Below, piece by piece: positions 3,522-33,295 of a DNA stretch of 58,566 bases. The first letter of the stretch is position 1. Each line of letters starts with the position of its first letter. The notes under the pieces were generated by a model. It was not told the origin of the DNA. It saw only the letters and a list, made by a program, of their open reading frames with translations, and made no database searches. This stretch comes from an uncultured Gammaproteobacteria bacterium (GTDB lineage: Bacteria; Patescibacteriota; Microgenomatia; JAMCZE01). Where the stretch lies: the NCBI GenBank assembly GCA_964431075.1, contig CAYSID010000001.1:1-58566 (forward strand), given 5' to 3'. The translations under genes and the position numbers were made by a program.

Positions 3522-4175
3522 TCAGAAACGATCGGTTACCGCATTGCAATAGACATTTTGGACATCGGCGAGATCGCTTAATTTTTCCAAAAACTCACCC
3601 GCCGGAGCTTTGACCATCGTCTCTTTATTAGGCCGGAAAATAAGTTCCGCCGAGATTATCTTCAGGGACTTCGCCAATTCTTCTTTAACGCGATGCAGAT
3701 CTTCCGGTCTGGTGTAAACCGAGCTTCCTTCCACATCCTCGGCGCCAGCTTCCAGCGCTTTCTCAAAAACATTATCCCCCTCAACCTCAATCTCGCCAAG
3801 ACGGGTAAAGAGATAGTCGGTTTTTCCCATCACCCCGCCGTTTTTGGCAAAAAAAGCCTTAATCTCCTGCGAGGTTCTGGTGGTATTGTCGGTTATGGTT
3901 TCGATTATTACCGCGACATTGTTCGGTCCAAACCCTTCAAAAACAGCCCCTACGAGACTCCCCTCCGCTGGCGAGGTGGCGCGATCAATCGCCCGCTGAA
4001 TTTTATCCTTGGGCATGTTCGCTTCACGTGCTTTTTCAATTAAGGCCGCGGGGTTTTGTTGATTTTTGACAGCAATAGTTATGGCGTTAGCCAGTTTAGT
4101 AAAAATTGCCCCTCGTTTGGCATCTGCCGCCCCCTTGGCGTGTTTTATCGTTGACCACTTCGAATGCCCGGACAT
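3522..4175 (-). CDS. yebC: YebC/PmpR family DNA-binding transcriptional regulator
   Basis: 217 aa. Canonical N-terminus MSGHSKWSTIKHAKGAADAKRG..FTKL. Confidence 0.9.
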   Translation of the reverse strand: MSGHSKWSTIKHAKGAADAKRGAIFTKLANAITIAVKNQQNPAALIEKAREANMPKDKIQRAIDRATSPAEGSLVGAVFEGFGPNNVAVIIETITDNTTRTSQEIKAFFAKNGGVMGKTDYLFTRLGEIEVEGDNVFEKALEAGAEDVEGSSVYTRPEDLHRVKEELAKSLKIISAELIFRPNKETMVKAPAGEFLEKLSDLADVQNVYCNAVTDRF

Positions 4176-4217: not shown

Positions 4218-4976
4218 ATGCAAAGCGACGCCAACAGTGCCATTCGAGCAGCGCTTGACGGCGACTGGGACGAGGCCATTAAACTAAATAAGGAAATATT
4301 AAAAACCACTCCCAACGACCTTGAGGCTCTGAACCGCCTGACCCGATCTTACATCGAAAAAAATCTCAAAAATCAAGCCCTGAAAAGCGTTCGCCAGGCC
4401 CTCAAGATCGATCCGTACAACCAAATCGCCCTTAAATTGAAAGCTAAAATCTCTTCCGGACGATCGGCAAAAATTTCCCGGTTGGAAAACTATGCCACCA
4501 TTTCCGCCTTCATCGAGGAACCGGGCAAAACCCGGTCAGTTGTCCTTATAAACTGCGCCTCGCCCAAAAAAATCGGTTGCGCCGAGTGCGCCCAAGGGCT
4601 GCAGCTTATTCCCAAACGTCACACCGTCCACGTTTGTGACTGTGACGGCAATTATTTAGGAATGCTTCCTGATGATCTGGGAAAACGACTCAATCTTCTT
4701 ATCAAAGGCGGTAACAGTTACCAGTGTTTTGTTAAAACCGTCGGGAGCAAAGACCTGACCGTCTTCATCAGAGAAACCACCCAGGCAAAAAAATACCGGG
4801 ATATCCCGTCGTTTCCGTCAAAGATCTCCATGGATCATATTTCCGACCACGCTGATGAAATTTTGGCGGAAGAAGAAAAGAAGGGGCAAAAAACCAAAAA
4901 AACTGAAGATGAAGAAGACGATGAAGGTCCGCCCTCTTCCAAAACTATTCATCAGGATGAGGAACCCGAAGAATAA
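4218..4976 (+). CDS. TPR-like repeat protein with acidic C-terminal tail
   Basis: The ATG at 4218 is preferred over the ORF-track start, which overlaps yebC. Helical repeat N-terminus (AIRAALDGDWDEAIKLNKEILK..LEALNRL) and an E/D/K-rich tail. Confidence 0.6.
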   Translation: MQSDANSAIRAALDGDWDEAIKLNKEILKTTPNDLEALNRLTRSYIEKNLKNQALKSVRQALKIDPYNQIALKLKAKISSGRSAKISRLENYATISAFIEEPGKTRSVVLINCASPKKIGCAECAQGLQLIPKRHTVHVCDCDGNYLGMLPDDLGKRLNLLIKGGNSYQCFVKTVGSKDLTVFIRETTQAKKYRDIPSFPSKISMDHISDHADEILAEEEKKGQKTKKTEDEEDDEGPPSSKTIHQDEEPEE

Positions 4977-5952
4977 GGGAGAGATCAGCCCGGCCCGCCT
5001 CTTTACCCATTAACTTGCAGCCAAAAATTTGGGCGATCCGGCTGGCTGTCAGCGAAGCCTTAACAGCTTTGACCTCGCATTCCCCGACCGGATATTCGGT
5101 GTTGGCCACGCTAACCACCGCCAGACCCATATTCGCCAAAATCCGGGCGGCCTTATTTCCCAATCCGAGCACTGTCCCGGCGTTTAAAACCTCAATTTTT
5201 AAATTTTCAGCCTGTAACCTATTCTCCCCGAACAAACCTGCGGAAAGAAAGTCAAATTTCTGCTGGTCTACCATCTTCACCGATTCACCGCTTTCCAAAA
5301 CTAATTCGGTAAGGTAGTGATTTAAGTCCAACGATTTTATCTTGTCCGGCCGCAGCTCGTAAAAATTTTTGATGACAGTAAATAAATCGTAGTAATTAAA
5401 GCTGGTCTCTTTACCGGTATTTATCTCTAAATTATTTATGAATCCGTCAACGGGAACACCAAGCAGGTCAGTAATGGTGGCCATAAGAACTTTCCCCCCC
5501 CGTTTGTCAAGCTCCCCAAGACTGTAAACCGCCTTCAATTTGTACAGCCCATAACCGTAAGCTGTTTGAACGGAAATATCATCGGGCAGACTGATTTTAA
5601 CTGCGGTTTTATCATCGGTGTTTATGGAGTAAAAAATCAGGGGATTTAAGATTAAAAAATTCAACCGCGACGAATTTAAAAACACGGAGGCTTTATATTG
5701 GGAATAAACGCCAAAACCCAAAAAACCGGCAACGATTGCTGTCGCCAACAAAAAAATCGCCCTGAACGGAAACCGCCTAGAAGCTGTCTTTTTTCTTCCC
5801 ACGGCTAATAACAACAGGCTGCGTGAAGGTGTAGCCGGTGAAGCCGCCACTATTCTGCCGGGCGGCCTTTTTAGCTTGTTCTTCTTTAGACATTTTTTTG
5901 TTTTTTTTGTTATTGAAATCTCCAAACATTCCCATACAGCTAATTTAACCAC
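4945..5952 (-). CDS. LytR/CpsA/Psr (LCP)-like membrane-anchored protein with LytR_C-like C-terminus
   Basis: 335 aa. Basic N-terminus plus one TM helix. The central region resembles an LCP fold (ISLPDD..YKLKAVYSLGE..LMATITDLLGVPVDGFI). The C-terminal block KIEVLNAGTVLGLGNKAARIL is LytR_C-like. Start is uncertain. Confidence 0.55.
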   Translation of the reverse strand: MVKLAVWECLEISITKKTKKCLKKNKLKRPPGRIVAASPATPSRSLLLLAVGRKKTASRRFPFRAIFLLATAIVAGFLGFGVYSQYKASVFLNSSRLNFLILNPLIFYSINTDDKTAVKISLPDDISVQTAYGYGLYKLKAVYSLGELDKRGGKVLMATITDLLGVPVDGFINNLEINTGKETSFNYYDLFTVIKNFYELRPDKIKSLDLNHYLTELVLESGESVKMVDQQKFDFLSAGLFGENRLQAENLKIEVLNAGTVLGLGNKAARILANMGLAVVSVANTEYPVGECEVKAVKASLTASRIAQIFGCKLMGKEAGRADLSLILRVPHPDE

Positions 5953-12511: not shown

Positions 12512-12597
12512 GGCGCGGTGCTGGAATTGGTATACGGGCTGGTCTCAAAAACCAGTGAGGTTAACCCCTCATGAGGGTTCGAGTCCCTCCCGCGCCA
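12512..12597 (+). tRNA. tRNA-Leu (anticodon CAA)
   Basis: Folded by hand. Acceptor GGCGCGG/CCGCGCC plus discriminator A. 3-bp D stem with GAATTGGTATA loop. Anticodon stem CTGGT/ACCAG with loop CTCAAAA. Long variable arm TGAGG-TTAACC-CCTCA. T arm GAGGG-TTCGAGT-CCCTC. CCA is not encoded. Confidence 0.93.
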
Positions 12598-12622
12598 CTT
12601 TTTGTCGACTGTCAATTAGTTG

Positions 12623-12829: not shown

Positions 12830-13495
12830 TGTTAAACTAAATTGTGCCGAGAAAAAACTCCAGAAAAATTTATTTTGAGAATGGATTTTACCATGTATAC
12901 AATCGTGGGGTCGAAAAGCGGGAAATTTTTATGGAACCGGCTGACTATGCGTTTTTTCTTCATCTAATTAAAGGGGCTCTGTCCCCACCTGAAAAGCAAA
13001 AACTTTTTGATGAAGGCATTTTTCGTCCACGACGTAAAAATTTCTACGGGAAAATTGATCTTTTATGCTATGTTTTAATGCCAAACCATTTTCATTTCAT
13101 CTTACGTCAAAACGATAAATCAACTATCACTGAATTTATTCGCTCAATTTTGACTTCTTATTCAATGTATTTTAATAAAAAATACGGTCGTGTTGGGGCT
13201 TTATTTCAAGGGGTTTTTAAAGCCATCGATATCCATGAGGAAAATCATCTTTTATGGTTGAGTCGTTATATTCACTTAAATCCAATAAATTTTACAAACT
13301 ACCCTTACTCTTCTTATGATGACTATTTACAAAAGAAAAATACCTCATGGATTAATAAATCGTTAATTTTAGATTATTTTAGCTCTAATCCACTCAAAAA
13401 AAGTAAAAATTATCAGGAGTTTGTCGAGAATAAGAAAAATAATGAAGGCATGGATTTGGAAAATCTCACTCTAGAATCCGATGATCTTGATTAAC
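12746..13495 (+). mobile_element. IS200/IS605-like or REPtron-like cassette (Y1/HUH transposase plus subterminal hairpins) inserted at the dnaB 3' end
   Basis: Bracketed by the two dnaB-tail copies. Contains the hairpins and the transposase ORF. Boundaries are inferred from where the duplicated homology ends. Confidence 0.55.
12844..13494 (+). CDS. Y1 (HUH) transposase, IS200-like / REP-associated tyrosine transposase (RayT-like) family
   Basis: 216 aa, GTG start. FYHVYNRGVEKREIF, HUH motif LMPNHFHFIL, and catalytic-Tyr region WLSRYIHLNP. Its stop overlaps the convergent dnaB stop. Confidence 0.8.
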   Translation: MPRKNSRKIYFENGFYHVYNRGVEKREIFMEPADYAFFLHLIKGALSPPEKQKLFDEGIFRPRRKNFYGKIDLLCYVLMPNHFHFILRQNDKSTITEFIRSILTSYSMYFNKKYGRVGALFQGVFKAIDIHEENHLLWLSRYIHLNPINFTNYPYSSYDDYLQKKNTSWINKSLILDYFSSNPLKKSKNYQEFVENKKNNEGMDLENLTLESDDLD

Positions 13496-22442: not shown

Positions 22443-22453
22443 CTACAACGATG

Positions 22454-22530
22454 TCATTGCGAGCGAAGCGAAGCAACCTTCCTTTAAGTTTTAAGAGGAT
22501 TGCTTCGTCACCACGTTCCTCGCAATGACA
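22454..22530. repeat. Long imperfect inverted repeat (GTCATTGCGAG...CTCGCAATGAC hairpin) between htrA and ctpA
   Basis: Left arm GTCATTGCGAGCGAAGCGAAGCAA (22454..22477). Right arm TTGCTTCGTCACCACGTTCCTCGCAATGAC (22501..22530). The outer 11 bp and inner 7-8 bp are complementary. Confidence 0.8.
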
Positions 22531-22533
22531 ACC

Positions 22534-23781
22534 CTACAAAAGTTTAATCGCCTCGATCAATTGAGTATCAATATCAGGCGTTTTCTCATCGTTTTCTATT
22601 TTAACATCCGGCGTCAAGCCCGTGCTATTGATCCAAACACCTGATGGTAAGAGCCACTTGGAAACGGTAACGTGCAACCCGGCCCCGCCGGGCAAGTCCT
22701 GCGCTTCCTGTACCGATCCTTTACCGAACGACTTGATTCCAACCAGCTTGACCCGTTTGTGATCGCGCAGCGCCCCGGCCAAAATCTCCGACGCCGAGGC
22801 CGAACCTTCATTTATCAGCACCACCAAAGGAATCTCCAGCAATTTTCCGGTTCTTGCCACTTTATATTCCTCGCTCGTCCCATTGTTATTGTCCTGTTTA
22901 ACCACTAACAAGCCTTGTTTTAAAAACTCGCTGGCAACATAAACCGCGCCCTGCAGGTAGCCACCAGGATTATTTCTCAGATCTAAAATTATTCCTTTAA
23001 TTTTGAATTTTGAATTTTGAATTTTAATTTCGTCGATAATCCTGTCCCAATCATTATTGGTATCTTCGCCAAATCTTGAGAGCCTTAAATAAACGAGATT
23101 GCTGTTAAGTGCAGCCGATCCGGTGGCATCAATTGTTTTCCACTCGACCGACTTGATCGTTATGACGTCACGAATTATATCGAATTCGAGCGGTTTCTCC
23201 GTTCCCTCGCGAACTATGGACAAATGAACATTAGTGTTTTTTGGCCCGCGAATTTTAGAGACCGTTTCCGGCAGGCTCCAATTATAAGTCTCGTTGCCGT
23301 CCACTTTTATTATCCAATCCGCGGACTTAAGGCCAACCACCTCCGCCGGGGAACCGGAAAGCGGCGCGACGACAATAATCCTTTTTTCCCTAACCCCCAA
23401 CTGGGCCCCGATTCCCTCAAAACTGCCGTTCAAACTCTCCTTGCTCTCCTTGTTTTCCTTCGGGGGAAGAAAAACCGTGTACGGGTCACCAATGCCGGCA
23501 ACCATTCCGGAAATTGCTCCCCACACCATTTTCTGGGGTTCTATTTTGGTTTTATCCACATACTGCGAGCTTACCCGGTTCCAGACTTCCCAAAACAGGG
23601 AAAAATCCGCCGGCGCGGGGTTTTGAGGCAGCCGATTTTCAATCTTAAATTCCGGGCGGAAATTTTTAATCTGCACCGCCACTCCTTCAAGCCCCGCTCG
23701 GTAACCAACACCACCACACAAAATCCCAAAAGTAAGAATAATTATTAAATTTCTAAACAAATTTAATTTAATTTTCATCAA
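22534..23781 (-). CDS. ctpA: S41-family carboxyl-terminal processing peptidase
   Basis: 415 aa. N-terminal TM helix, PDZ domain, LDLRNNPGGYL and GSASASEILAGAL motifs. Contains a 7-bp tandem repeat. Confidence 0.9.
   Translation of the reverse strand: MMKIKLNLFRNLIIILTFGILCGGVGYRAGLEGVAVQIKNFRPEFKIENRLPQNPAPADFSLFWEVWNRVSSQYVDKTKIEPQKMVWGAISGMVAGIGDPYTVFLPPKENKESKESLNGSFEGIGAQLGVREKRIIVVAPLSGSPAEVVGLKSADWIIKVDGNETYNWSLPETVSKIRGPKNTNVHLSIVREGTEKPLEFDIIRDVITIKSVEWKTIDATGSAALNSNLVYLRLSRFGEDTNNDWDRIIDEIKIQNSKFKIKGIILDLRNNPGGYLQGAVYVASEFLKQGLLVVKQDNNNGTSEEYKVARTGKLLEIPLVVLINEGSASASEILAGALRDHKRVKLVGIKSFGKGSVQEAQDLPGGAGLHVTVSKWLLPSGVWINSTGLTPDVKIENDEKTPDIDTQLIEAIKLL
23004..23024. repeat. Tandem repeat (TGAATTT)x3 inside the ctpA coding sequence
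   Basis: Read directly, flanked by TAATTT variants. Translated as IQNSKFKIK. Confidence 0.85.
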
Positions 23782-23974
23782 ATTTTTCTATCTCTAGATA
23801 AAACACTTCCCCTTTATTTTTAAATTTTAAAAAATCCCGGTAATTAATTGAGCCGGCCACCAAACCGAGGTACCCCTCGACTTGAGCTTTCTCGATATCC
23901 TCAAGATAAATGTGCCCTTTAATTTTTTTGACTTTTTCGTCTGGTTTTTCTCCCAGAATTATTTTATCTGCCAT
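23768..23974 (-). CDS. Hypothetical protein (translationally coupled to the upstream ORF)
   Basis: The ATG at 23974 overlaps the stop of 23964..24404 (ATGGCAGATAA). No family recognised. Confidence 0.45.
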   Translation of the reverse strand: MADKIILGEKPDEKVKKIKGHIYLEDIEKAQVEGYLGLVAGSINYRDFLKFKNKGEVFYLEIEKFDEN

Positions 23975-24404
23975 GAGTGTCAATTATAATACCTATATCC
24001 CCACCGGTCGCGTCAACAAGGAAATTATTTTTATTGTCAATTTTGAATTGACCGTGAAGTTTTACCCTTATTTTTTTAGTTTCCCCTTTTGCCAAAGGAA
24101 TAATAAAGTATTTCCCGTACGGGATCTTTGTCTTATCAACTTCTACTCCAATTTCCCCAATTTCCCCCATTCTCCCAACCGGACAAATCGCTGTTCCCCA
24201 CTCCCCGATTTTTGCAACTCCCACCGGTGGCTTTTCTTTAAATAATTTAGCAATCCCTAGGGCTCTTTCAAAATCAGTATTCTGTTCAATCTCAATTCCA
24301 TAGAGTTTATTCCCCACCCAGTTTTCAAAGGCAATAATGTCCGCTACCGGCTCGGTAAGCCACGGGGAAAGATCATTATAAGTCAAATCCATCATCGGTG
24401 ACAT
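23964..24404 (-). CDS. Hypothetical protein
   Basis: 146-aa ORF directly downstream of rpsR. No family recognised. Confidence 0.5.
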   Translation of the reverse strand: MSPMMDLTYNDLSPWLTEPVADIIAFENWVGNKLYGIEIEQNTDFERALGIAKLFKEKPPVGVAKIGEWGTAICPVGRMGEIGEIGVEVDKTKIPYGKYFIIPLAKGETKKIRVKLHGQFKIDNKNNFLVDATGGDIGIIIDTHGR

Positions 24405-24410
24405 TGTAAC

Positions 24411-24644
24411 TTAAGAAGCTATAAAAGGTAAATAAGCAAGATGGCGGGCACGTTTAATAGCCACTGATAACTTTTTCATATGCTTGGCGCAAACGCCGGT
24501 ATAAGCCCGCGGTAAAATCCGACCGCGTTCGGAAATAAAACGGCGCAACTTTTCCGCGTCTTTATAATCGGGAACCGTCTTATTTTGGCAAAATCCGCAA
24601 TCTTTTTTTGTGAACTTTTTCTTAGTAATTTTTTTTCTTTTCAT
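24411..24644 (-). CDS. rpsR: 30S ribosomal protein S18
   Basis: 77 aa. C.FC.......DYKD...L..FISERG.ILPR..TG.C.KH.......IKRAR.LA.LPF. Confidence 0.92.
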
Positions 24645-24669
24645 ATTTCAATTTTTCCGTCATAATCCC

Positions 24670-25128
24670 TCAAAAGGGAATATCGCTGGCATCGACGTTT
24701 TCCATTTTGGGCTCTTCCTTCTGTTCCTCGATTGCCGCTGGCGGGGATTCAACTGCGGTGGCTGAAGGCGCCGCCGTCTCAATCACGGTCTGTTTCGGCG
24801 TTAAAATCATCATATCCTCAATCACGATCTCCGTCTTAGTTCGCTGAACGTTATCCTGACCAGTATAACTTCTCGTCTGAATCCGTCCCTCGACGTAAAC
24901 CTTCATTCCTTTGCGCAGCATCTGAGAACAAATTTCGGCAAGTTTATTCCAGACGACGATATTATGAAAATCAACCTCCTCCTTGAGTTCTCCGGTATCT
25001 GACTTCCAGCTGCGGTTTGTCGCCAAGCCAAAAGTCGTCACCGCGGTTCCCTGCGGCGTATACCTCATTTCCGGGTCTCTGGTGAGATTCCCGATCAACA
25101 TCGCTTTGTTTAACGATCTTCCCGCCAT
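24670..25128 (-). CDS. ssb: Single-stranded DNA-binding protein
   Basis: 152 aa. OB-fold N-terminus LNKAMLIGNLTRDPEMRYTPQGTAV..F.LA and acidic tail ending DIPF. Confidence 0.92.
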   Translation of the reverse strand: MAGRSLNKAMLIGNLTRDPEMRYTPQGTAVTTFGLATNRSWKSDTGELKEEVDFHNIVVWNKLAEICSQMLRKGMKVYVEGRIQTRSYTGQDNVQRTKTEIVIEDMMILTPKQTVIETAAPSATAVESPPAAIEEQKEEPKMENVDASDIPF

Positions 25129-25370
25129 ACTAATAAATGTCTCAACACTTTATCTTCCAATTTCAACTTATTTTCAAGATCCGAAACGTCAGAGGGAGTC
25201 ATTTCCAGTTCGCAGTAAGAGAAAATGGCTTTGTTTTGTCTCTTAATATCGTAGGCCAACGGCCTTTCCACCGGCTTGCCGACTTTCAGAATTTTTATTT
25301 TTAATTTTTTCAAAAACGCTTCAAGATCAAACTCCCCCCTAAAAATAACTGTCAATTCATAACCTCTCAT
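25110..25370 (-). CDS. rpsF: 30S ribosomal protein S6 (short)
   Basis: 86 aa. MRGYELTVIF start. rpsF-ssb-rpsR gene order. Confidence 0.8.
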   Translation of the reverse strand: MRGYELTVIFRGEFDLEAFLKKLKIKILKVGKPVERPLAYDIKRQNKAIFSYCELEMTPSDVSDLENKLKLEDKVLRHLLVWREDR

Positions 25371-25382
25371 AGCCTTATTCTA

Positions 25383-26312
25383 CTAAACCCCAACCTTAAA
25401 TTCAATAACGTCCCCGTCTTTGACTTCATACTCCTTACCTTCAAGCCGGACTTTACCAGCTTCTCTTGCCCTCTTATATCCCCCAAACCCCACATAATCC
25501 TCATATGCTACGACTTCGGCTTTAATAAAGTTTTTTTCAAAATCCGTGTGAATAACCCCCGCGGCCTGTGGGGCTTTGGTTCCCATTTTAACAGTCCAAG
25601 CACGGACTTCTTTATCTCCAGCGGTTAAAAAAGAAATAAGCCCCAGCATCTCATAAGCCTTCCTGATCAACCGGTTCAACCCCGGCTCTTCCAAACCATA
25701 TTCCTTTAGTAAAGCCGTTTGATCTTCTTGTGAAAGTTCGGCAAGTTCCGCTTCCAATTTCGCGTCTATCCTCAGTCCCTGACTACCCAAAACCCCCTGA
25801 TCATCCTGATAACTGACATTATAAACATACAAAATTGGTTTTTGGGCAAGTTTTGGCGCCCCCTCTTTGGCTTCCAAATCCGCAAGTTCCAATTCGGTTT
25901 TAATAAGCTCTATATCATCTTGCGGGCTAACGCTGCCCTCTCTAATAATATTTTCGTCTTTAAAATCCCGGACCACTTCGCAAATTAAATCCACCTCGCG
26001 GATATGCGCTAAAAATTTATTGCCAAGCCCGGCCCCGGTAGAGGCCCCTTTAACTAGCCCAGCAATGTCCACAAATTTGACAGTTGCAGGAATAATCGGA
26101 GGGTTATAGTCTAATTTTTTTTCAAATTTAACCAATTTTACCAATTCATCCAATCGTCTATCAGGCACCGGGACAATTCCCACATTCGGCTCAATGGTCG
26201 CAAAGGGATAGTTGGCCACCAGCGCCTGTTGCTTTTTTAACAGCGCGTTAAACAACGTCGACTTCCCCACATTGGCCAGTCCTACGATTCCGACTGATAG
26301 ACCGCAACTCAT
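25383..26312 (-). CDS. ychF: Ribosome-binding ATPase YchF (short form)
   Basis: 309 aa. GIVGLANVGKSTLFNAL, YPFATIEPNVG, and a C-terminal TGS-like domain (RAWTV..G..AP.AAGVIHTDFE..FI.AEV). AGGAGG RBS upstream. Confidence 0.9.
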   Translation of the reverse strand: MSCGLSVGIVGLANVGKSTLFNALLKKQQALVANYPFATIEPNVGIVPVPDRRLDELVKLVKFEKKLDYNPPIIPATVKFVDIAGLVKGASTGAGLGNKFLAHIREVDLICEVVRDFKDENIIREGSVSPQDDIELIKTELELADLEAKEGAPKLAQKPILYVYNVSYQDDQGVLGSQGLRIDAKLEAELAELSQEDQTALLKEYGLEEPGLNRLIRKAYEMLGLISFLTAGDKEVRAWTVKMGTKAPQAAGVIHTDFEKNFIKAEVVAYEDYVGFGGYKRAREAGKVRLEGKEYEVKDGDVIEFKVGV

Positions 26313-27894
26313 ACTTTTGGTTTTCCTCCTTTCTTAAATAAAGAGGTATATATCCTCGTATTTTAACATGAGTTCTTGCCTGGTTGACGATGATTTCTTT
26401 AATCATGCTTAATAAGACCTTTCTTTTATCTTCAAATTCAAATTTGCCAACAGCTACGGGGACCGCTTGTACTACTTGGTCAACCGAAAGATTCGGTATT
26501 ACCTGTTGCCGTTGTTGCTTCGCTACTAATTCTAATAACTGCTTATTCAAAGATTCCCGTCTCTGTTTAATATCATCCATCAACTCCTTAAAAGATTGAA
26601 ACGTAATAAGCTCTTGTCCGTAGGCTTTGGCTTGGCGTTTTTCTTCTTCATCCAGTCGTGACAAAAGAATTTTTATATTATCAATATCCTCCTGAACACT
26701 GTTCCGCTTCTCCTTGCCATCTAGCCATCGTTCCGCTTGCTTCTGAATCAAATCTTGGGATATTAATAAGCCAATTACTTTATTCCAGACCACACCGTCA
26801 ACCCTATCTGTATTAACTCCTGCTGCCTTGCATGGAGTTTCCAAGGGATAGTGTTTCAGCCTGGCTTCACCCCGATGATACCTATTCGGATTATTCCCGC
26901 CCTCGCACCCCATCCGTTCCCCGCACTCACAAAACATCAGTCCAGACAGAAGATAATCGTGTTTTTTATTTCTTTCTGAAAACTTTGAATTCGCTTTCAG
27001 TTGTTCCTGGACCTTATAAAACGAATCGGCTTTAATAACTGGCGGAATCGGGATTGCTATCCAATCCTCTTTTGGTTTGTTCTTTCTACTGCTCTTTTTA
27101 ATCTTCTTGTATTTGTCGTGACTGAGAGGGTTCTCAGGCTCAACTGCTACACTTTTGTTGTAATATTCGTTACCAATATAAGCCTCACACCTGAATAATC
27201 TTGATAAAGTACTATTTGACCAATATCCTCTTTTGCTTTTAGGAGGCCTTATTCCTTTATCTGCAAGGCGTTTTATTACTTTTCTAATTGTCAGTTTTTC
27301 GTTTCCTACCCAATCAAACATCTGTTTAACATACCTCGCATCTTCTTTGACAATCTCGAAGTAACCTTCAGTAGTATTACCTAGTTTATCTTTTGTTTTA
27401 GGAATATAACGATAACCAAAAGGGGCGGGACCATGGACTATTTTCCCCTTTCTTGCTTTGTACAACTTTCCCCGCCTCATCTGCTCCGCAATTTTCCTTC
27501 GTTCATAATCATGGAATAGACCCATCACTCTTTGTACAAATACCTCTTCTTCACTTTCAGGGTTTATGTCATGAAGAGAGATAACTTGTTTATTCAGCCT
27601 CCCCAGTTCATCAAGTAGTATCAATTGGTTAAGAAAATCGCGAGACAACCGTCCTAAGTCATAGACATACAAAACTTCAAACTCCCCATCTATTGCTGCA
27701 TCCCGCATCCTGTCTAAATCTGGACGTTGCAATAAACCACCTGACCATCCATCATCAATAAATATCAGATTGTCAGGCAATACGCACCCATCCTGTCTTA
27801 TCCTCTCTTTTATTTCAGCTATCTGACTTTCAATTGTCTCTTCTCGTTCCTGCCTTCCTGTACTGACTCTGGCATATAAAGCTGCAATTTTCAT
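26248..27894 (-). CDS. Large serine recombinase (integrase type)
   Basis: 548 aa. Resolvase-type N-terminus KIAALYARVSTGRQ, recombinase domain, Cys cluster (CECGERMGC...C) and C-terminal coiled-coil. The last ~20 codons overlap the ychF start. Confidence 0.88.
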   Translation of the reverse strand: MKIAALYARVSTGRQEREETIESQIAEIKERIRQDGCVLPDNLIFIDDGWSGGLLQRPDLDRMRDAAIDGEFEVLYVYDLGRLSRDFLNQLILLDELGRLNKQVISLHDINPESEEEVFVQRVMGLFHDYERRKIAEQMRRGKLYKARKGKIVHGPAPFGYRYIPKTKDKLGNTTEGYFEIVKEDARYVKQMFDWVGNEKLTIRKVIKRLADKGIRPPKSKRGYWSNSTLSRLFRCEAYIGNEYYNKSVAVEPENPLSHDKYKKIKKSSRKNKPKEDWIAIPIPPVIKADSFYKVQEQLKANSKFSERNKKHDYLLSGLMFCECGERMGCEGGNNPNRYHRGEARLKHYPLETPCKAAGVNTDRVDGVVWNKVIGLLISQDLIQKQAERWLDGKEKRNSVQEDIDNIKILLSRLDEEEKRQAKAYGQELITFQSFKELMDDIKQRRESLNKQLLELVAKQQRQQVIPNLSVDQVVQAVPVAVGKFEFEDKRKVLLSMIKEIIVNQARTHVKIRGYIPLYLRKEENQKYELRSISRNRRTGQCGEVDVV

Positions 27895-27895
27895 C

Positions 27896-28078
27896 TTATT
27901 TCTTCTCCTTCTTTACTCTTATGGTTTCAATAAATTCTTTCAAGTCAGATTCTCCGATACGATACCCGCGCCCGACTCTGATTGCTTTAAGTTTCCCCAA
28001 TTTGATGTAACTAAGTGTTGTTTGCCAGTGAATTTGTAGAGCTTGTGATACTTGAGATACTGTTAAATATTTTTCCAT
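27896..28078 (-). CDS. Excisionase-family helix-turn-helix DNA-binding protein
   Basis: 60 aa. LTVSQVSQALQIHWQTTLSYIKLGKLKAIRVGRGYRI is an HTH_17/MerR-like Xis signature. Its stop lies 1 nt from the recombinase start. Confidence 0.8.
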   Translation of the reverse strand: MEKYLTVSQVSQALQIHWQTTLSYIKLGKLKAIRVGRGYRIGESDLKEFIETIRVKKEKK

Positions 28079-28136
28079 AATTTATAAACTATACTAAGCT
28101 ATACTAAATAGACTGTAACATATTCCATCTAACAAC

Positions 28137-28325
28137 TCAATACGGATAATACCCTGAAACTGTTGTTTCTACACCCGATGTGGTAGTAATTATTCCCGTT
28201 ACTGTCGTGACGAATTGCTGTGCCTTGTTGAATAACCAGCCAAATAAGTCATCAACCTTTTGACTGCTGCCGTCATCCATCGCACACTCATAAGATACTG
28301 ATAGTTCTCTCCCGATTATTTTCAT
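28137..28325 (-). CDS. Hypothetical small protein (island)
   Basis: 62-aa ORF overlapping the upstream ORF by 4 bp. T/G/V-rich C-terminus. No family recognised. Confidence 0.45.
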   Translation of the reverse strand: MKIIGRELSVSYECAMDDGSSQKVDDLFGWLFNKAQQFVTTVTGIITTTSGVETTVSGYYPY

Positions 28326-28600
28326 ATCTCCTCCCTAAAAGCTCTTAACGCATACATAAAATCAGTTTTGGTGTCATACTCCCCGTCGTTGTAAAAAATT
28401 GACCGTCTTCCTAAGCTGTCCCGCTTCCGTCCATATGTCACCCGCAAGTAGTATTTTTGACCCCTAAGCTGCCAATTCACTAAGGCTAAACTTTTCAAAA
28501 AACTGCCGTAAAAGTGGGTGGCGCACCTCTTTACCACCCGTCCGTTTATGTAAACTTTCAGAGAATAATTTACCTTGTGATTTTCTTTATGCTTTGCCAT
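28322..28600 (-). CDS. Hypothetical basic protein (island)
   Basis: The ORF track gives 28322..28624. The ATG at 28600 (MAKHKENHK...) overlaps the stop of the RHH ORF. No family recognised. Confidence 0.5.
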   Translation of the reverse strand: MAKHKENHKVNYSLKVYINGRVVKRCATHFYGSFLKSLALVNWQLRGQKYYLRVTYGRKRDSLGRRSIFYNDGEYDTKTDFMYALRAFREEI

Positions 28601-28766
28601 ACTTTTTAGTGAAATACTCGGCAAAGGACAATTCCTCGCCAGAGTTCAACCACTCATCAATAATTTTTTCAGCTAAGGCCCTAATCGTCAGGCGTTCTTC
28701 CCGCGCCATCTGTTTGAGCTGTTTATGTAACTCTTGGTTTAACCTGATTAGTTTTGAATCCCGCAT
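28587..28766 (-). CDS. Ribbon-helix-helix (CopG/Arc-like) DNA-binding protein; not in the ORF track (59 aa)
   Basis: Hand translation: MRDSKLIRLNQELHKQLKQMAREERLTIRALAEKIIDEWLNSGEELSFAEYFTKKYGKA*. It shows the beta-strand plus two-helix RHH pattern. No obvious SD sequence. Confidence 0.5.
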   Translation of the reverse strand: MRDSKLIRLNQELHKQLKQMAREERLTIRALAEKIIDEWLNSGEELSFAEYFTKKYGKA

Positions 28767-29080
28767 ATTGATTGGGTTTGATACATGGGGTTTACCCTAT
28801 ATATCTTTCCCCTCCCTCCCAAACCATTCCTGCCAATCTTCTAGCCAGTCCTGCCGAATCAGTTTTATCTTTCTATTTAGTGTTTCCTTTTTTCTTACCT
28901 AGGTCCCCAGTCAGAATCTTGTCTGACTCAAAGGGTTTATCTCTTATTAACCTCCTGGCTCGTACCCGATTCGTATAGGCTGGTAGTGAGTTGGCTGACT
29001 GTAAAAACTTTTTGTTCGGAAACCTGAAATTGCTTTCAGGAAAAGCTGGCCCGTCAGCGGTCTCCTATCCTTTAAGCCAC

Positions 29081-29113
29081 AAAAAAATCCGACGCAAAAA
29101 ATTGCAGTCGGAT
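29081..29113 (-). terminator. Rho-independent terminator (minus strand)
   Basis: Minus strand reads ATCCGAC-T-GCA ATTTTT TGC GTCGGAT followed by TTTTTTT: a 10-bp stem with one bulge, then a U7 tail. Confidence 0.7.
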
Positions 29114-29246
29114 TAACAAGAAGGTTCAAAAACCTATGTTTCCCTTGTGACTAATTCCAGATTAACACCAACTATTTACCTGTCAACTCAAAAGATAGAC
29201 ATCAAAATAGGTCAGAAGTAGTCAATTTTGTTATTATTTGTTTATT

Positions 29247-29768
29247 ATGCTGAAATACGACTGGTTTAAATTAAAAAATTCCTATATCACAGGCGACTGG
29301 TTAAGTGTTAGTAATTTTCTGAAAACTCAAGGAATTAAAAACAACTCACGGACTAGGACCTCGACAAAAGGATGGAACAAGGCCAGGGTTGAATATCTCA
29401 AAAAAGTAATTTCTCAAACTCAACAAAAAGCTATTGAATCAGAAACGGACATACGGCTAAGACAACAACAGGAAGCCAAACTCCTTCAAAGAAAAGGAAT
29501 AGAAAAACTCGATAAACTCGAAATTAGAACAGTTGAAGAAGCTAGAAGATTAATTACATCTGGATTAGAGGAAGAAAAACTCGCACTCGGCATGGACCAA
29601 AAGACTGCTACCCAAGTTAATATCCAACCAACCGCAAAAACCGAACTGGATAAACTAATTGAGAGGGCTAGTTTTGAAGAGTTACTGTTGATGATTGCCG
29701 AACTAAAACGCTTCAATCAAAACCTCCTCTCTACGTCGAGAGATAACAGCGATGACGTGACATCATAG
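29247..29768 (+). CDS. Hypothetical protein, possibly phage small-terminase/HTH-like
   Basis: 173 aa from the ATG at 29247. N-terminus W.KLKNSYITGDWLSVSNFLKTQGI...KGWNKAR followed by a long coiled-coil. The resemblance is recalled from memory, not tested. Confidence 0.5.
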   Translation: MLKYDWFKLKNSYITGDWLSVSNFLKTQGIKNNSRTRTSTKGWNKARVEYLKKVISQTQQKAIESETDIRLRQQQEAKLLQRKGIEKLDKLEIRTVEEARRLITSGLEEEKLALGMDQKTATQVNIQPTAKTELDKLIERASFEELLLMIAELKRFNQNLLSTSRDNSDDVTS

Positions 29769-29972
29769 TGACACGACAAAGGCTTATTTTGAATAATTAT
29801 TAAGACGTTCAAGCCAAGAAGTGGTAGATTGCTCTCGTTCAAAGCGCGCTTCCCGTAAGACGCTCCCCCCTGTTTCAAAAATCTATTTTACAAGCTCACA
29901 AAGAGGCATCGTAGACACTTCGTTTGTGGGAATAATTTTATAAAGAGAGATACTTATCTATCCTTAAATCAA

Positions 29973-31190
29973 CTAAGGCCTGGAGACATAATAGCCATAA
30001 AGATGAGATTTACAAATTTCCCCCCCACTTGTTTCGACACCACCACTGATACTTACTATTACTGCGATGCTGGGAATTGAAGATGGAGTATCAGCTTTAA
30101 TTTTATCTACATCTGCCTTTTTAACCTTGATAACAAAGGCATCTTGATAACTTCCTTTCTTTGAAGAATCAATATTTACATCGAAATTGGTAATTGAAAA
30201 ATAAGTGCTGGGTATTTTTTGCGGATTGCCAGAAACTTCAATCTTGGATTTATCTATCGTTTGTTGCTTCAAGGTTTTGTCAGTTCTTTGGGTAATAACC
30301 ATGTTACCTTCCTCATCTATGGTTGAATCCCAATAAGTACCGCGGTTGTTACTATCTGGGCGCGGGTAACAATAAGTTGTAGGTAAATTCTGTCCACCCG
30401 ATGTACCGCCAGTGATTGTAATCGTGGCAATAACTGTCAATATATTTTTATAATCGTTTGACCGACTTTCAACTGAATAGGGATAGGTAAAATAATACAT
30501 CTTATCTCCTTGAGGAAGAAGGAAAAATACTCGTTTTTCAACATAATCAGAACCTCTCCATGCCCCAAAATTAGTAACAATCTTTAAGAAAGTCTTATTA
30601 TTGAGAACTACATCACTTACTGAAATAGTATGTTTTGAAATTTCCTGGACCGTATAATCCCAATCAATAGTCTTGTAAAAAGCGTCGCGCCTTGACCCAC
30701 CTTCATAAGCAAAATAGTAAAAATCAAGTATTTTTTGTCCTGCGCTATCGAGCAAATAAGAACCCGCTGCAAAATTACCCGTCCCAAAACCACGGTTTGA
30801 ATTATACTTTGCAGTATATAGGGGAGGGTAATTTATTGTTATACCCGCTTCAGAGTCTGAATATTTTTGCCACCCTTGAGGAACCGTATAAGTAGTCGAC
30901 TTTTTTTGTGTAGGTTCTATATCTGGATTTGAAGGTTCGGGACTTACTCGAACAGGTGCTGGGGTATTTTCGGCGATTGAATTAGGAGGAGTAGGAGAAG
31001 GTAACAAAGAACTAACTCCCCGTTTCTTACCAATTTGAATACCTGCAACAACAGCACCAGATATTATCACTATAACTGTAAGGGCAACTACTGAAATTAT
31101 TAACCATCTCGGACGATTATTTATCGTCTCGTTGATGGGTGAAGAGCTTGTTGCTTCTTGCTTTGGTTCTATTTTTATCTCTTCTTGCAT
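29973..31190 (-). CDS. Membrane-anchored hypothetical protein with Pro-rich linker
   Basis: 405 aa. N-terminal TM helix (WLIISVVALTVIVIISGAVVAGI), P/S-rich spacer, large extracytoplasmic domain. No family recognised. Confidence 0.6.
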   Translation of the reverse strand: MQEEIKIEPKQEATSSSPINETINNRPRWLIISVVALTVIVIISGAVVAGIQIGKKRGVSSLLPSPTPPNSIAENTPAPVRVSPEPSNPDIEPTQKKSTTYTVPQGWQKYSDSEAGITINYPPLYTAKYNSNRGFGTGNFAAGSYLLDSAGQKILDFYYFAYEGGSRRDAFYKTIDWDYTVQEISKHTISVSDVVLNNKTFLKIVTNFGAWRGSDYVEKRVFFLLPQGDKMYYFTYPYSVESRSNDYKNILTVIATITITGGTSGGQNLPTTYCYPRPDSNNRGTYWDSTIDEEGNMVITQRTDKTLKQQTIDKSKIEVSGNPQKIPSTYFSITNFDVNIDSSKKGSYQDAFVIKVKKADVDKIKADTPSSIPSIAVIVSISGGVETSGGEICKSHLYGYYVSRP

Positions 31191-31400
31191 ATTTATGTAA
31201 ATCTAGTAAATCACTTTTGTTTTTAATTGCAAATAATTAAAAGTAGTTTGGGACCTGAGACTGCTTTATCCTACCCCAGCCATCCCGCATGGCAATTATC
31301 CGCGCCTTCTTAGCCTTGGGAATACGGGCGATAATCTCAAAAGGTAGCTTTGCGTTCCCACTATCCCTACTTGCAACATAATTTGTATTATACTTAATTT

Positions 31401-31942
31401 ATGAAAATTTTTATCCCCATTATTTTGATTGCCATCCTTTCCCTTACCTCCCTAAACACCCTGAATTCCCTGATCGTCTCTGAAGTCGTTGACGGCGACA
31501 CGTTTTCCTTGTTAATCTTAAACAAACCGGTGATTTTAAGAGAAGAAAAACTGGAAAAATACGGCCGAAAAATGGCTCTCGTTTATTTACTTGACGGGGT
31601 TTTAATAAATAAAGTTATGATGGAAGAAGGTTTTGGCCGCCCGGATTACAGAGAAAATTCCCAAAGGGGAAATTTAACCGCCGCCTTTCACGAAGCAAAA
31701 AATAATAATCGCGGTCTATGGTCGCTTGTATAATCTCCCCGGAAGACCCTAAACCCCCTAAAATCCCTGACTGCAATATCAAAGGCAACATTGATTTTCA
31801 AACTTACGAAAAATTTTATCACTTGCCTGGTTGCAAACATTACGGTCAGACGAGTTTAAACCTGGCATACGGTGACAAGTGGTTTTGTTTGGAAAAAGAA
31901 GCCCGCGCCGCCGGTTTCCAAAAAGCCTCTGCCTGCCCCTGA
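31401..31942 (+). pseudogene. Thermonuclease (SNase-like) gene, frameshifted and internally deleted
   Basis: ORF 31401..31733 (VVDGDTF...YGRKMALVYLLDG..INKVMMEEGF...NRGLWS) lacks the central catalytic segment. The Cys-rich C-terminal module (CNIKGNI...YHLPGC...WFC.EKEARAAGF) continues in another frame from 31718. Confidence 0.65.
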
Positions 31943-32015
31943 TCCCCAAATCCCCCCAACTTCCCTAAACTTCCCAATCATGTTATTCTATTTTTCGGAA
32001 ATGGGGTGATAAATA

Positions 32016-32390
32016 ATGACAGGATTTTGTCAAAATATTGAAGAAGCAACTTCAGCTAATGAAAACTTTCGGCAGGTATTGTTTACCGGCCGACACGCGC
32101 AGTTGGTTGTTATGTGTTTGCAACCCGGCGAGGAAATTGGTATGGAAACCCATGACACCGTTGATCAATTTTTTCGGGTTGAAGCCGGAACGGCAAAGTT
32201 TGTATTGAACGGGGAAGAAAAAACGGCGACTGACGGCTTTGCGGTCATTGTTCCCGCGGGCGTCCAACATAATGTCGTAAATCTTGGGGCGGACAAATTA
32301 AAATTATATACCGTTTATTCACCGCCAAATCACCCGCCGGGGACGGTCCATCAGACCAAGGCCGAGGCTGACGCCGCGGAGCGCAACTAA
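32016..32390 (+). CDS. Cupin-domain protein
   Basis: 124 aa. G.E...ETH....Q.F.V..G......NGEE......G..V.VPAG..HNV.N pattern. Confidence 0.75.
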   Translation: MTGFCQNIEEATSANENFRQVLFTGRHAQLVVMCLQPGEEIGMETHDTVDQFFRVEAGTAKFVLNGEEKTATDGFAVIVPAGVQHNVVNLGADKLKLYTVYSPPNHPPGTVHQTKAEADAAERN

Positions 32391-33295
32391 TTAACCGTTT
32401 GAAAATAATCATAAACGGCACGAGAGACCTGGGCGATTCTTTCTTCGGCCCCAAAAGGAGAGTTAGACTCGGACATAACCACAATTAAATAATCCCCATT
32501 GGGAGTGTAAACAATGCCGGCGTCGTGTTTGAAGCCATAAATTTCTCCGGTTTTATGTGCCACCTTGATCCCCGCCGGCAAATATTTCGGCAGGCCATCA
32601 TTAAGTTTATTGCGGGACATGACTTCGATCAATTTTTCGGAAATTAATTCGTCGCCAATTTTGTGGTTATACAACTGCTCTAAAAATATTTCCATATCAG
32701 CGGCGGTAGTTTGCGGTTTTATTTTAAATGTTGAGTTTTTAAGGCCAAATTCGTCCAGGATTTTTTCTATCCGATCGTATCCCCCGATGTTTTTGAGAAG
32801 CGTCAGAGCGGTATAATTATGAGAAATAGTGATTGTTTGCTCGACCAGTTGTCTTACCGTCATATTTATCGTCCCATGACTCAATTCCTGATCCGCCGGA
32901 GCGATAGAAAAATAAGAATTAATGCCGGGAATTGATTCGGTTAGAACCTGATTTTCATCCAGTTTACCATCACGAATATCCTCGTAGACGGCGGTCACTA
33001 ACCAAGACTTGTATAATGAGGCCGCGTGCATAAGCTCATTTTCGTTTTGAGCGAAATAGGTTTTGGTTTTTAAATTTTTAACCACCACCGCATACTTGCC
33101 CGTCGTTTCCTCCAGAGCTTTCTCCACCACTTTTTTTAATTGTTCATTTTTATTGGGAAATAATTTTGGAGGAGGAGGGACGACATAGTTGGCCGGAACC
33201 GGGGAAATAAATTCGTGAGGGACAGGAGTAATCAATTGATTGATAACTACAAGTATCGAAGCCAAAGTTGCGGTCACCTGATTCATGCCCCTCAT
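32387..33295 (-). CDS. Serine hydrolase, class A beta-lactamase-like fold
   Basis: 302 aa. SxxK (ASLYKS) and KTG (AHKTGE) motifs, N-terminal hydrophobic anchor. Confidence 0.7.
   Translation of the reverse strand: MRGMNQVTATLASILVVINQLITPVPHEFISPVPANYVVPPPPKLFPNKNEQLKKVVEKALEETTGKYAVVVKNLKTKTYFAQNENELMHAASLYKSWLVTAVYEDIRDGKLDENQVLTESIPGINSYFSIAPADQELSHGTINMTVRQLVEQTITISHNYTALTLLKNIGGYDRIEKILDEFGLKNSTFKIKPQTTAADMEIFLEQLYNHKIGDELISEKLIEVMSRNKLNDGLPKYLPAGIKVAHKTGEIYGFKHDAGIVYTPNGDYLIVVMSESNSPFGAEERIAQVSRAVYDYFQTVN

Follow-up and report, generated by a model that had tools for sequence, protein, structure and literature searches.

Phage-inducible chromosomal islands (PICIs), e.g. the Staphylococcus aureus pathogenicity islands (SaPIs), integrate site-specifically and carry an integrase, a small excisionase-type helix-turn-helix (HTH) protein, divergent regulators and their own small-terminase gene (terS), without virion genes. 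Their average size is about 9.5 kb (quoted in PMC10803314). The PICMIs of Vibrionaceae (phage-inducible chromosomal minimalist islands) have a core of int, alpA and a primase gene, lie next to fis and have no terS; PICMI115 comprises six genes on 6,110 bp (PMC10803314). We describe here an element of 5.08 kb inserted in ychF on contig CAYSID010000001.1 (assembly GCA_964431075.1), from a bacterium that GTDB places in the Patescibacteriota. The whole stretch analysed, 58,566 nt, is called the window and all coordinates are window positions unless a locus is named; L- and P-numbers designate loci and proteins found in our searches.

As in PICIs, integration is site-specific and the gene set includes an integrase, here a large serine recombinase (LSR), a small protein matching HTH_17 and TIGR01764, divergent regulators and an open reading frame (ORF) similar to TerS, with no virion genes. 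The element, known here from sequence alone, differs from PICIs by its size, by a serine integrase (that of PICIs is normally a tyrosine recombinase) and by the absence of a primase or replicase: none of its ORFs matches a replication family in Pfam, PHROGs or NCBIfam, which leaves no counterpart of the primase-replication (pri-rep) gene of PICIs. With PICMIs it shares the minimalist size and the lack of capsid-remodelling genes, and it would depend fully on a helper phage. The PICMI core is absent: the element has a terS, no primase and an LSR, and lies inside ychF and not next to fis.

Other systems bear on the way it integrates. In the SSV1-type integrases of archaeal fuselloviruses attP lies inside int, integration partitions the gene and only the circle encodes the full-length enzyme. 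These are tyrosine recombinases of archaeal viruses whose int is split in two large parts, whereas the bacterial LSR described here loses only its last 39 residues, the remainder being an open, probably expressed ORF. In mycobacteriophages BPs and Brujita attP lies inside the repressor gene, and integration changes the C-terminus, giving free and integrated isoforms (PMC3694055, PMC4557955); there the integrase is a tyrosine recombinase and the repressor is altered, here it is the LSR itself. LSRs also insert inside host coding sequences in the gene-intervening elements skin (SpoIVCA), SPbeta (SprA) and gin in gerE, the latter being similarly tiny (PMC5595907). Those elements disrupt the host gene until excision, whereas the present one keeps ychF by means of a dual-coding surrogate 5' end. 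Finally, a defective prophage of pneumococcus has its int immediately upstream of ychF and controls ychF expression (PMC8637289, citing Chen et al. 2019); it belongs to another phylum, its attB is intergenic (DUF951-ychF), and it shows neither dual coding nor a split int. In the literature, which we covered incompletely, we came across no account of an LSR whose own 3' end contains attP, of an arm that is dual-coding and repairs ychF, or of phage satellites in bacteria of the candidate phyla radiation (CPR).

Attachment sites inside ychF

Comparison of its two ends shows window 26281-31358 to be an integrative element, with the start of ychF as the attB and an LSR as its predicted means of mobilisation. 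The crossovers are separated by 5,076 bp, and the insertion point is codon 8-9 of ychF, within the VGIVG|L codons of the P-loop. attL reads ..ATC GTA GGA|CTG GCC AAT GTG GGG AAG; its arms are ..TCAGTCGGAATCGTAGGA on the element side and CTGGCCAATGTGGGGAAG on the host ychF side. attR contains a second, different ychF start, broken off at GGA (minus strand 31392-31353: TATAAT-N7-ATG TTG CAA GTA GGG ATA GTG GGA|ACGCAA). This GGA is all that attL and attR have in common at the junction. When the left half of attR is placed before the right half of attL, ychF is restored intact, with the beginning MLQVGIVGLANVGKST; the reciprocal combination, attL on the left and attR on the right, leaves int in frame. 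These reconstitutions show a predicted attP that is located inside the 3' coding region of int itself.

A degenerate pattern of 36 nt, designed to match all four att combinations, has two matches in the window, attL and attR alone. In the JGI (Joint Genome Institute) metagenome contigs, a collection without the window's own sample, it detected one locus, L019. There ychF is uninterrupted (TATAAT-N9-ATG CTA CAA GTA GGA ATA GTG GGA CTG GCA AAT GTC GGG AAG), and the attB reconstituted from the window fits this locus, which is a predicted empty attB. L019 is collinear with window 22452-26295 (S41 peptidase, S18, SSB, S6, ychF; 71-76% nucleotide identity) and no further. From the end of this similarity at 26295 and from the comparison of the att sites, the crossover was placed in the GGA at 26280-26282 and 31356-31358. 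The junction GGA|ACGCAA is also present in three sister loci, L020, L021 and L004. In L004 attL and attR have different bases after GG, and the crossover can thus be confined to this dinucleotide. YchF of L004 and L019 is respectively only 49% and 62% identical to that of the window.

An earlier note on this DNA had proposed an integrated element with its junction at the 3' end of int, and recommended looking for the empty site in relatives; the att sites and L019 bear out both points. The same note put the element next to ychF, with a right end at 31240. Its position is in fact inside the ychF coding sequence, for which it supplies a replacement 5' end, and it reaches 31358, taking in a detached int tail of 39 codons. 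The note had also found the region richer in AT than its flanks: the direction holds, the difference is modest (GC of 0.390 in the element vs 0.428 outside it), and values as low as this occur in 8% of windows of the same size elsewhere. The features of the locus are collected in Table 1.

Table 1. Features of the element and of its junctions with ychF (window positions).
Feature	Position	Strand	Remarks
ychF, chimeric, intact, 309 aa	25383..26312	-	Pfam YchF-GTPase_C 4.6e-37, MMR_HSR1 1e-21
int, large serine recombinase, integrated form, 548 aa	26248..27894	-	domain matches, homologues
attL	26262..26297	-	crossover GGA at 26280-26282, most likely GG 26281-26282; junction sequence TCAGTCGGAATCGTAGGACTGGCCAATGTGGGGAAG
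Surrogate ychF 5' end, element-encoded	26283..26331	-	ribosome-binding site (RBS) AAGGAGG 26325-26331, ATG 26312-26310, codons MSCGLSVGIV(G)
HTH_17 / excisionase-family protein, 60 aa	27896..28078	-	HTH_17 40.6 bits (cut-off 27), TIGR01764 'excise' 44.8 bits (cut-off 28.8)
62-aa ORF, no family	28137..28325	-	weak relative upstream of int in L020, E = 7e-4
100-aa ORF, no family	28322..28624	-	homologue in L021 int module, E = 7e-11
59-aa putative ribbon-helix-helix (RHH; Arc/CopG-like) regulator	28587..28766	-	first gene of int operon; weak HMM matches
Regulatory non-coding region, 480 nt	28767..29246	.	aligns with L020 upstream of its RHH gene
Direct repeat TCCTGCCAATC	28828-28838
Direct repeat TCCTGCCGAATC	28849-28860
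Hairpin AGTCAGA-N6-TCTGACT	28909-28928		conserved loop CAAGAT
Hairpin CCTGAA..TTCAGGTTTCCGAA (CCTGAA/TTCAGG)	about 29015-29040
Box AGGAGACCG..CGGGCCAG	29046-29066
Intrinsic terminator	29081-29113	-	hairpin + T-run
Small-terminase (TerS)-like protein, 173 aa	29247..29768	+	ATG at 29247; profile, context, model
405-aa membrane-anchored protein	29973..31190	-	N-terminal transmembrane segment, proline-rich linker; 76% identical to L004 homologue
Detached int 3' tail, 39 codons	31237..31356	-	NAKLPFEIIARIPKAKKARIIAMRDGWGRIKQSQVPNYF then stop (31239-31237); in frame across reconstituted attP
attR	31338..31392	-	crossover GGA 31356-31358, plus displaced native ychF 5' end; junction sequence CAAGTAGGGATAGTGGGAACGCAAAGCTACCTTTTG
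Displaced native ychF 5' end	31377-31392	-	ATG 31379-31377 encoding MLQVGIVG; TATAAT box 31387-31392
Predicted attP			TCAGTCGGAATCGTAGGAACGCAAAGCTACCTTTTG
Predicted attB			CAAGTAGGGATAGTGGGACTGGCCAATGTGGGGAAG

The integrase, its tail and the nested ychF start

The integrase carries three LSR domains: Resolvase (PF00239, 6.8e-26, residues 4-151, with the motif YARVSTGRQ), Recombinase (PF07508, 6.6e-17) and Zn_ribbon_recom (PF13408, 26.1 bits vs a cut-off of 25.3). It also matches the integrase family phrog_95 (3e-85). Of the features that define an LSR, the catalytic domain, the Recombinase and zinc-ribbon domains and att sites sharing only a short centre are thus found. The last 10 residues of the integrated form, TGQCGEVDVV, are ychF sequence read in the +1 frame. 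With its detached tail the reconstituted Int has 577 aa. Since integration cuts this tail off, only the excised circle can encode the 577-aa Int, and the isoform made from the integrated copy has 548 aa. In the window, L004, L020 and L021 the detached tail is conserved, with the same stop. Between the window and L004 the nonsynonymous divergence (pN) of the tail is 0.20 and the synonymous divergence (pS) 0.85, indicating that it evolves as coding sequence. We infer that the tail may affect the activity, stability or directionality of Int.

A search with the reconstituted Int yielded at least 580 homologues at E <= 1e-20. Few of them have a source name; these come from Beckwithbacteria, Daviesbacteria and the Microgenomates group, i.e. 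from Microgenomates-type Patescibacteria. The 120 best homologues were classed with regular expressions, a heuristic procedure. By this classing 68 run past the junction into sequence fitting the ychF P-loop region in the +1 frame (for example RTPKCRQINPVQCP, which corresponds to GLPNVGKSTLFNAL) and 45 end at most 6 residues from the junction. Four (P0270, P0293, P0330 and P0348; 571-579 aa) have a contiguous tail; its motif ..(F/L)xFxF..PxPRKxRIIxxRDxxGRI.. can be aligned to the four detached tails (window, L004, L020, L021). Judging from these homologues, integration into the ychF P-loop with an attP inside int is a property of the whole Int family. The earlier note, right in calling the enzyme an LSR of 548 aa, thought such an element unusual for the lineage; this view does not survive the count of homologues, the named ones being Patescibacteria and most of the 120 closest being cut at the same ychF junction.

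L022 and L023, which have a full-length Int, were checked for circularity; they show no terminal overlap and cannot be called circles. The 3' end of L023 is Illumina adapter sequence, for which a physical DNA end and untrimmed reads are both possible. A scan of viral contigs with Int gave one distant relative only.

The arm of the element that adjoins ychF carries a new beginning for this gene. On the minus strand it reads AAGGAGG-N12-ATG AGT TGC GGT CTA TCA GTC GGA ATC GTA GGA CTG GCC AAT GTG GGG AAG, and encodes MSCGLSVGIVGLANVGKS; the ychF P-loop GLANVGKST starts at the junction. This surrogate start is nested in the 3' end of int, in another frame: int reads ..KYELRSISRNRR and then TGQCGEVDVV*. 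Because the RBS, the start and the first codons of ychF lie inside the int ORF, the stretch codes for two proteins. And because the arm brings an RBS, an ATG and 11 surrogate codons, ychF is kept intact. The run of the int frame 65 bp into ychF, seen in the earlier note, is thereby confirmed (int stop at 26248, ychF ATG at 26312). L020, in a Beckwithbacteria genome, repeats the design: int overlaps ychF by 65 bp, with a surrogate MGCGLAVGIVG over int ..YGLRSSSRDSG, and a native start MSLSVGIVG is found with the Int tail ~10.8 kb upstream.

The two ychF starts are of different types. At the native one the TATAAT box lies only 7-9 nt before the ATG, without a Shine-Dalgarno sequence (window 31377-31392; L019 3645-3665), which suggests that the ychF mRNA may be leaderless in these bacteria. 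The surrogate start, unlike the native one, has a strong AAGGAGG.

The TerS-like protein, the cargo and the int operon

Judged by profile and context, the 173-aa protein is a genuine relative of small terminases. A word-indexed protein search gave only four other close homologues, whereas a profile search of 1.84 billion cluster representatives gave 278 relatives. P0156 (42% identity over query residues 3-155) and P0159 (38%), both full-length matches, belong to separate phage contigs with the gene order ParB_N, TerS-like, large terminase (TerL; GpA ATPase + nuclease), portal, MuF. The position directly upstream of TerL holds for these two proteins; the window has no TerL. Remote members of the family match the PHROG TerS families 1206, 51, 2606, 6299 and 2414 via their N-terminal 55-100 residues, and profile-profile comparison (hhalign) links the close family to these remote members with a probability of 99.5% (E = 1.2e-22, 134 columns). 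The suggestion of the earlier note that this ORF resembles small terminases, made from its N-terminus, is thus supported both by the phage relatives upstream of TerL and by the profile link.

In the AlphaFold model of the protein (AF2, 78 sequences, pLDDT 84.6) three short helices form an N-terminal bundle, and helices of 48 and 19 residues come after it. Its best Foldseek match in BFVD is annotated 'Terminase small subunit', a weak match (E = 0.1, probability 0.96, TM-score 0.45-0.51). The whole family architecture is kept, including the C-terminal region, and the terS copies borne by elements are under purifying selection (dN/dS of 0.09-0.18). Searches of PDB sequences were negative for the single sequence as well as for the profile, no Pfam family was returned for 100 family members, and the scan of viral contigs with the 173-aa ORF found no TerS relative. 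tblastn against GenBank phages gave one weak N-terminal match (E = 0.01). A scan of genome contigs with a narrow TerS alignment recovered L012 and the already-known L004 contig only.

Six contexts contain close TerS relatives, of 45% identity or more: the window, L004, L006/L012, L008, L016 and L014. An adjacent TerL is found in none of the six, and five are linked to an integrase (an LSR in four, a different one in L006); L004 has no integrase. In L014 (1-11578) the terS relative, 46% identical, lies beside a tyrosine integrase, HTH_17, an HTH_3 regulator and a primase/helicase (phrog_239, 3.6e-16), a gene set that is PICI-like by its predicted content. L006 (4245-7488) and L012 (8945-10164) contain a second type of compact element, with terS, an ORF of 101 aa, an RHH of the omega type, an ORF of 59 aa and a 507-aa LSR by greA; at the nucleotide level the two loci become similar ~6 nt within the terS ORF and have different flanks upstream.

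The second cargo protein, of 405 aa, is membrane-anchored and proline-rich, as previously described for this ORF; it gave no phage match and, like the 100-aa ORF, no PDB match. The window and L004 share 75-76% identity in TerS and in the 405-aa protein vs 49% in YchF, which indicates that the pair moves horizontally. The sister elements are of various sizes and contents. That of L020 (~10.8 kb) carries a type III-like restriction-modification system, that of L021 (~6.9 kb) an HNH nuclease and other genes, and L004 is an integrase-less derivative of 2.8 kb at the same ychF site, with a truncated terS. No capsid, portal, TerL, tail or lysis gene was found in any element examined, sisters included. 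For the window element the absence of structural, lysis and replication family matches in the three family databases agrees with the earlier note, which had seen no virion or replication genes.

L004 contains a 162-aa ORF, the truncated terS, a 70-aa ORF, a homologue (389 aa) of the 405-aa protein and the Int tail, between direct repeats of 113 nt (1218-1330 and 4022-4134; 96% identical) that are composed of the ychF start and 87 nt upstream. It resembles a remnant mobilisable in cis, like a cis-mobilisable element (CIME). In L021 the HNH endonuclease (4848-5528) lies directly beside attR; HNH nucleases often assist cos-type terminases.

The int module has the order RHH, 100-aa ORF, 62-aa ORF, HTH_17, int, with a conserved structured leader or operator region ahead of it, and this int-proximal module is common to sister elements with other cargo. 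All five minus-strand ORFs announced by the earlier note are present. The HTH_17 ORF, whose excisionase-type assignment lies above both cut-offs, stops 1 nt ahead of the int ATG and has homologues directly upstream of int in L021 and L022; its product is a candidate recombination directionality factor (RDF) or regulator. The ORF of 59 aa is real, while its RHH family stands only weakly: RHH_4 gives 20.0 bits (7e-4), under the cut-off of 25, and the Arc-like PHROG match is weak as well (1e-4). The 59-aa protein shares 53% identity with the one encoded at the head of the L020 int module, and the analogous gene of L006 matches Omega_Repress at 5e-8. The 62-aa and 100-aa ORFs, already noted as being without family, and likewise the 173-aa and 405-aa ORFs, have no direct match in Pfam, PHROGs, NCBIfam, PADLOC or PDB. 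The PADLOC output consisted of a generic HTH_17 match and a Cas8b match judged spurious.

The regulatory region upstream of the RHH gene is apparently structured. The direct repeats, as previously reported, are real: they are the only two matches in 58.6 kb vs 0.06 expected, and they are conserved beside the RHH homologue in L020; as the earlier note proposed, the RHH protein may bind them. The reported terminator is also present as a hairpin with a T-run, and both it and the 28909-28928 inverted repeat fold. Taken alone, this 7-nt inverted repeat is not beyond chance, and it becomes meaningful only by its conservation in L020, where four stem pairs are changed on both sides and the loop CAAGAT is unchanged. 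When window 28895-29125 (minus strand) is compared with L020 8535-8785, the terminator, two hairpins and both direct repeats align, and 5 of the 19 predicted pairs of the leader change on both sides yet remain paired. On this basis the region is probably a structured leader or small RNA, or else a set of operators that co-evolve. Rfam gave no match in 25000-32500 at E up to 1, and a scan of viral contigs for the conserved leader motif was negative. L002, an independent Logan contig of the same strain (window 23831-29123), ends at 29123, just outside the terminator hairpin.

Elsewhere in the window, the host side of attR (31401-31942) holds a staphylococcal-nuclease-like ORF (110 aa, apparently without part of the catalytic core), overlapped in another frame by a 74-aa 'sunset domain' ORF; the former is probably a decayed or frameshifted secreted nuclease. 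An ORF for an IS200-like Y1 transposase adjoins the only tRNA gene of the window, tRNA-Leu CAA (12512-12598, 12844-13494), and a XerC/D-type tyrosine recombinase is encoded near the window start (342-1241).

Lifestyle of the element

The best overall explanation, to which we give a probability of about one half, is that of an LSR element targeting ychF with an intragenic attP and acting as a minimal phage satellite or hitcher. The satellite lifestyle as such is plausible but unproven. The locus fits small hitch-hiking islands that acquired a terS, and fits a decaying prophage poorly.

In the proposed cycle, a helper phage with a related terminase would infect the cell, and the RHH/HTH switch would let Int and a directionality factor excise the circle. 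The most likely candidate for this factor would be the HTH_17 protein, which is translationally coupled, or else either of the two small ORFs. Recombination of attL with attR would restore the native ychF and yield a circle of 5,076 bp, on which int would be full-length and followed 46 nt later by the 405-aa gene. The TerS-like protein would then recruit the TerL of the helper to the element DNA for packaging, with replication, capsid and lysis all borrowed from the helper. In the integrated state the displaced ychF promoter points into the element and probably drives transcription of the Int-tail fragment and of the 405-aa gene. The terminator probably stops read-in from this promoter before the RHH-int operon, as an insulation. 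Transcription of ychF itself would start within the int operon or pass through it, and its translation would use the Shine-Dalgarno sequence of the element.

Several points weigh against this cycle. No helper phage was identified, and there is no phage gene elsewhere in the window, which is ordinary chromosome. The element has no primase or replication gene detectable in Pfam, PHROGs and NCBIfam, and to our knowledge every defined satellite family except the least-known ones requires such a gene. Sister elements have the same int module without TerS, which makes TerS cargo and not core. The 173-aa ORF and its close relatives individually match no PHROG TerS family, so that the link to TerS through PHROGs is transitive; the Foldseek matches are weak, and for both models nothing significant was found in PDB. 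Lastly, the reconstructed att sites have no more dyad symmetry than expected by chance: the best scores, not centred on the crossover, are 9-10 of 24 positions, the random expectation being 6.1 on average and 10 at the 95th percentile. The gene combination recognised in the earlier note (int, Xis and TerS without virion genes) stands; the satellite reading drawn from it is a hypothesis, since the element has no pri-rep gene and no helper phage was found. The wider statement, combining a Patescibacteria-wide LSR family with an Int isoform switch and dual-coding repair of ychF with this member as a 5-kb satellite free of replication genes, is a tentative one and unlikely to hold in all its parts.

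It is quite possible, if short of an even chance, that the element is an LSR-mobilised mini genomic island and not a satellite. The TerS-like protein would then have been co-opted as a DNA-binding accessory, i.e. a regulator, an RDF, or a decoy misdirecting the large terminase of an invading phage, and the island would use other means of spread, for instance transformation, vesicles or generalised transduction. The unrelated cargo that the same int module carries in L020 (type III-like restriction-modification) and L021 (HNH nuclease) speaks for such an island, and so do the lack of a replication gene and of a detected helper phage; satellites and islands often carry defence cargo. The TerS-like protein itself argues the other way: it keeps its whole architecture and 42% identity over residues 3-155 to a TerS encoded upstream of TerL, its gene is under strong purifying selection, and terS recurs in small elements with different integrases, one of them PICI-like (integrase, HTH_17, primase/helicase, terS). 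We know of no LSR directionality factor that is TerS-like (Bxb1 gp47, phiC31 gp3, SprB and others).

A heavily deleted prophage, in which the int-proximal end and a stray terS would be what is left of a temperate phage, was the alternative put forward in the earlier note and now appears improbable. The integrase, the excisionase-like HTH, the RHH repressor and terS are indeed all of phage type, and decay does occur, as in L004 with its missing integrase and truncated terS. Yet all seven ORFs of the window element are intact and tightly packed (non-coding intervals of 58, 204 and 46 nt beside the 480-nt regulatory region), and purifying selection acts on terS as well as on the detached Int tail. 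The sisters with the same junction (2.8, ~6.9 and ~10.8 kb) all lack structural and lysis genes, and in prophages terS does not normally stand beside the int-regulatory module.

Ordinary conserved synteny without any mobile element, for which one could cite the recurrence of the arrangement in two other samples (L001 and L002, whose contigs are however 100% identical to the window), has next to no chance of being right and is refuted by the duplicated ychF start and split int that mark the junctions, by the empty site of L019, where collinearity ends, and by a cargo far more similar between hosts than the core gene.

The element is of unusual design for a bacterial serine integrase, one arm being dual-coding and rebuilding the host gene while the integrase loses a conserved tail. 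The 548-aa and 577-aa Int are predicted to differ in activity or directionality. For a very large family of Patescibacteria integrases, the att model proposed here is precise and internally consistent, comprising attB, attP, the crossover and two Int isoforms. Its target is a near-universal P-loop sequence in ychF, and the enzyme is a candidate tool for site-specific insertion in bacteria that are very hard to manipulate genetically. If hitch-hiking mediated by terS is true, the satellite would be smaller than the smallest one characterised, PICMI115 with its 6.1 kb, and a phage of Patescibacteria would be hijacked with nothing beyond the element's own small terminase.

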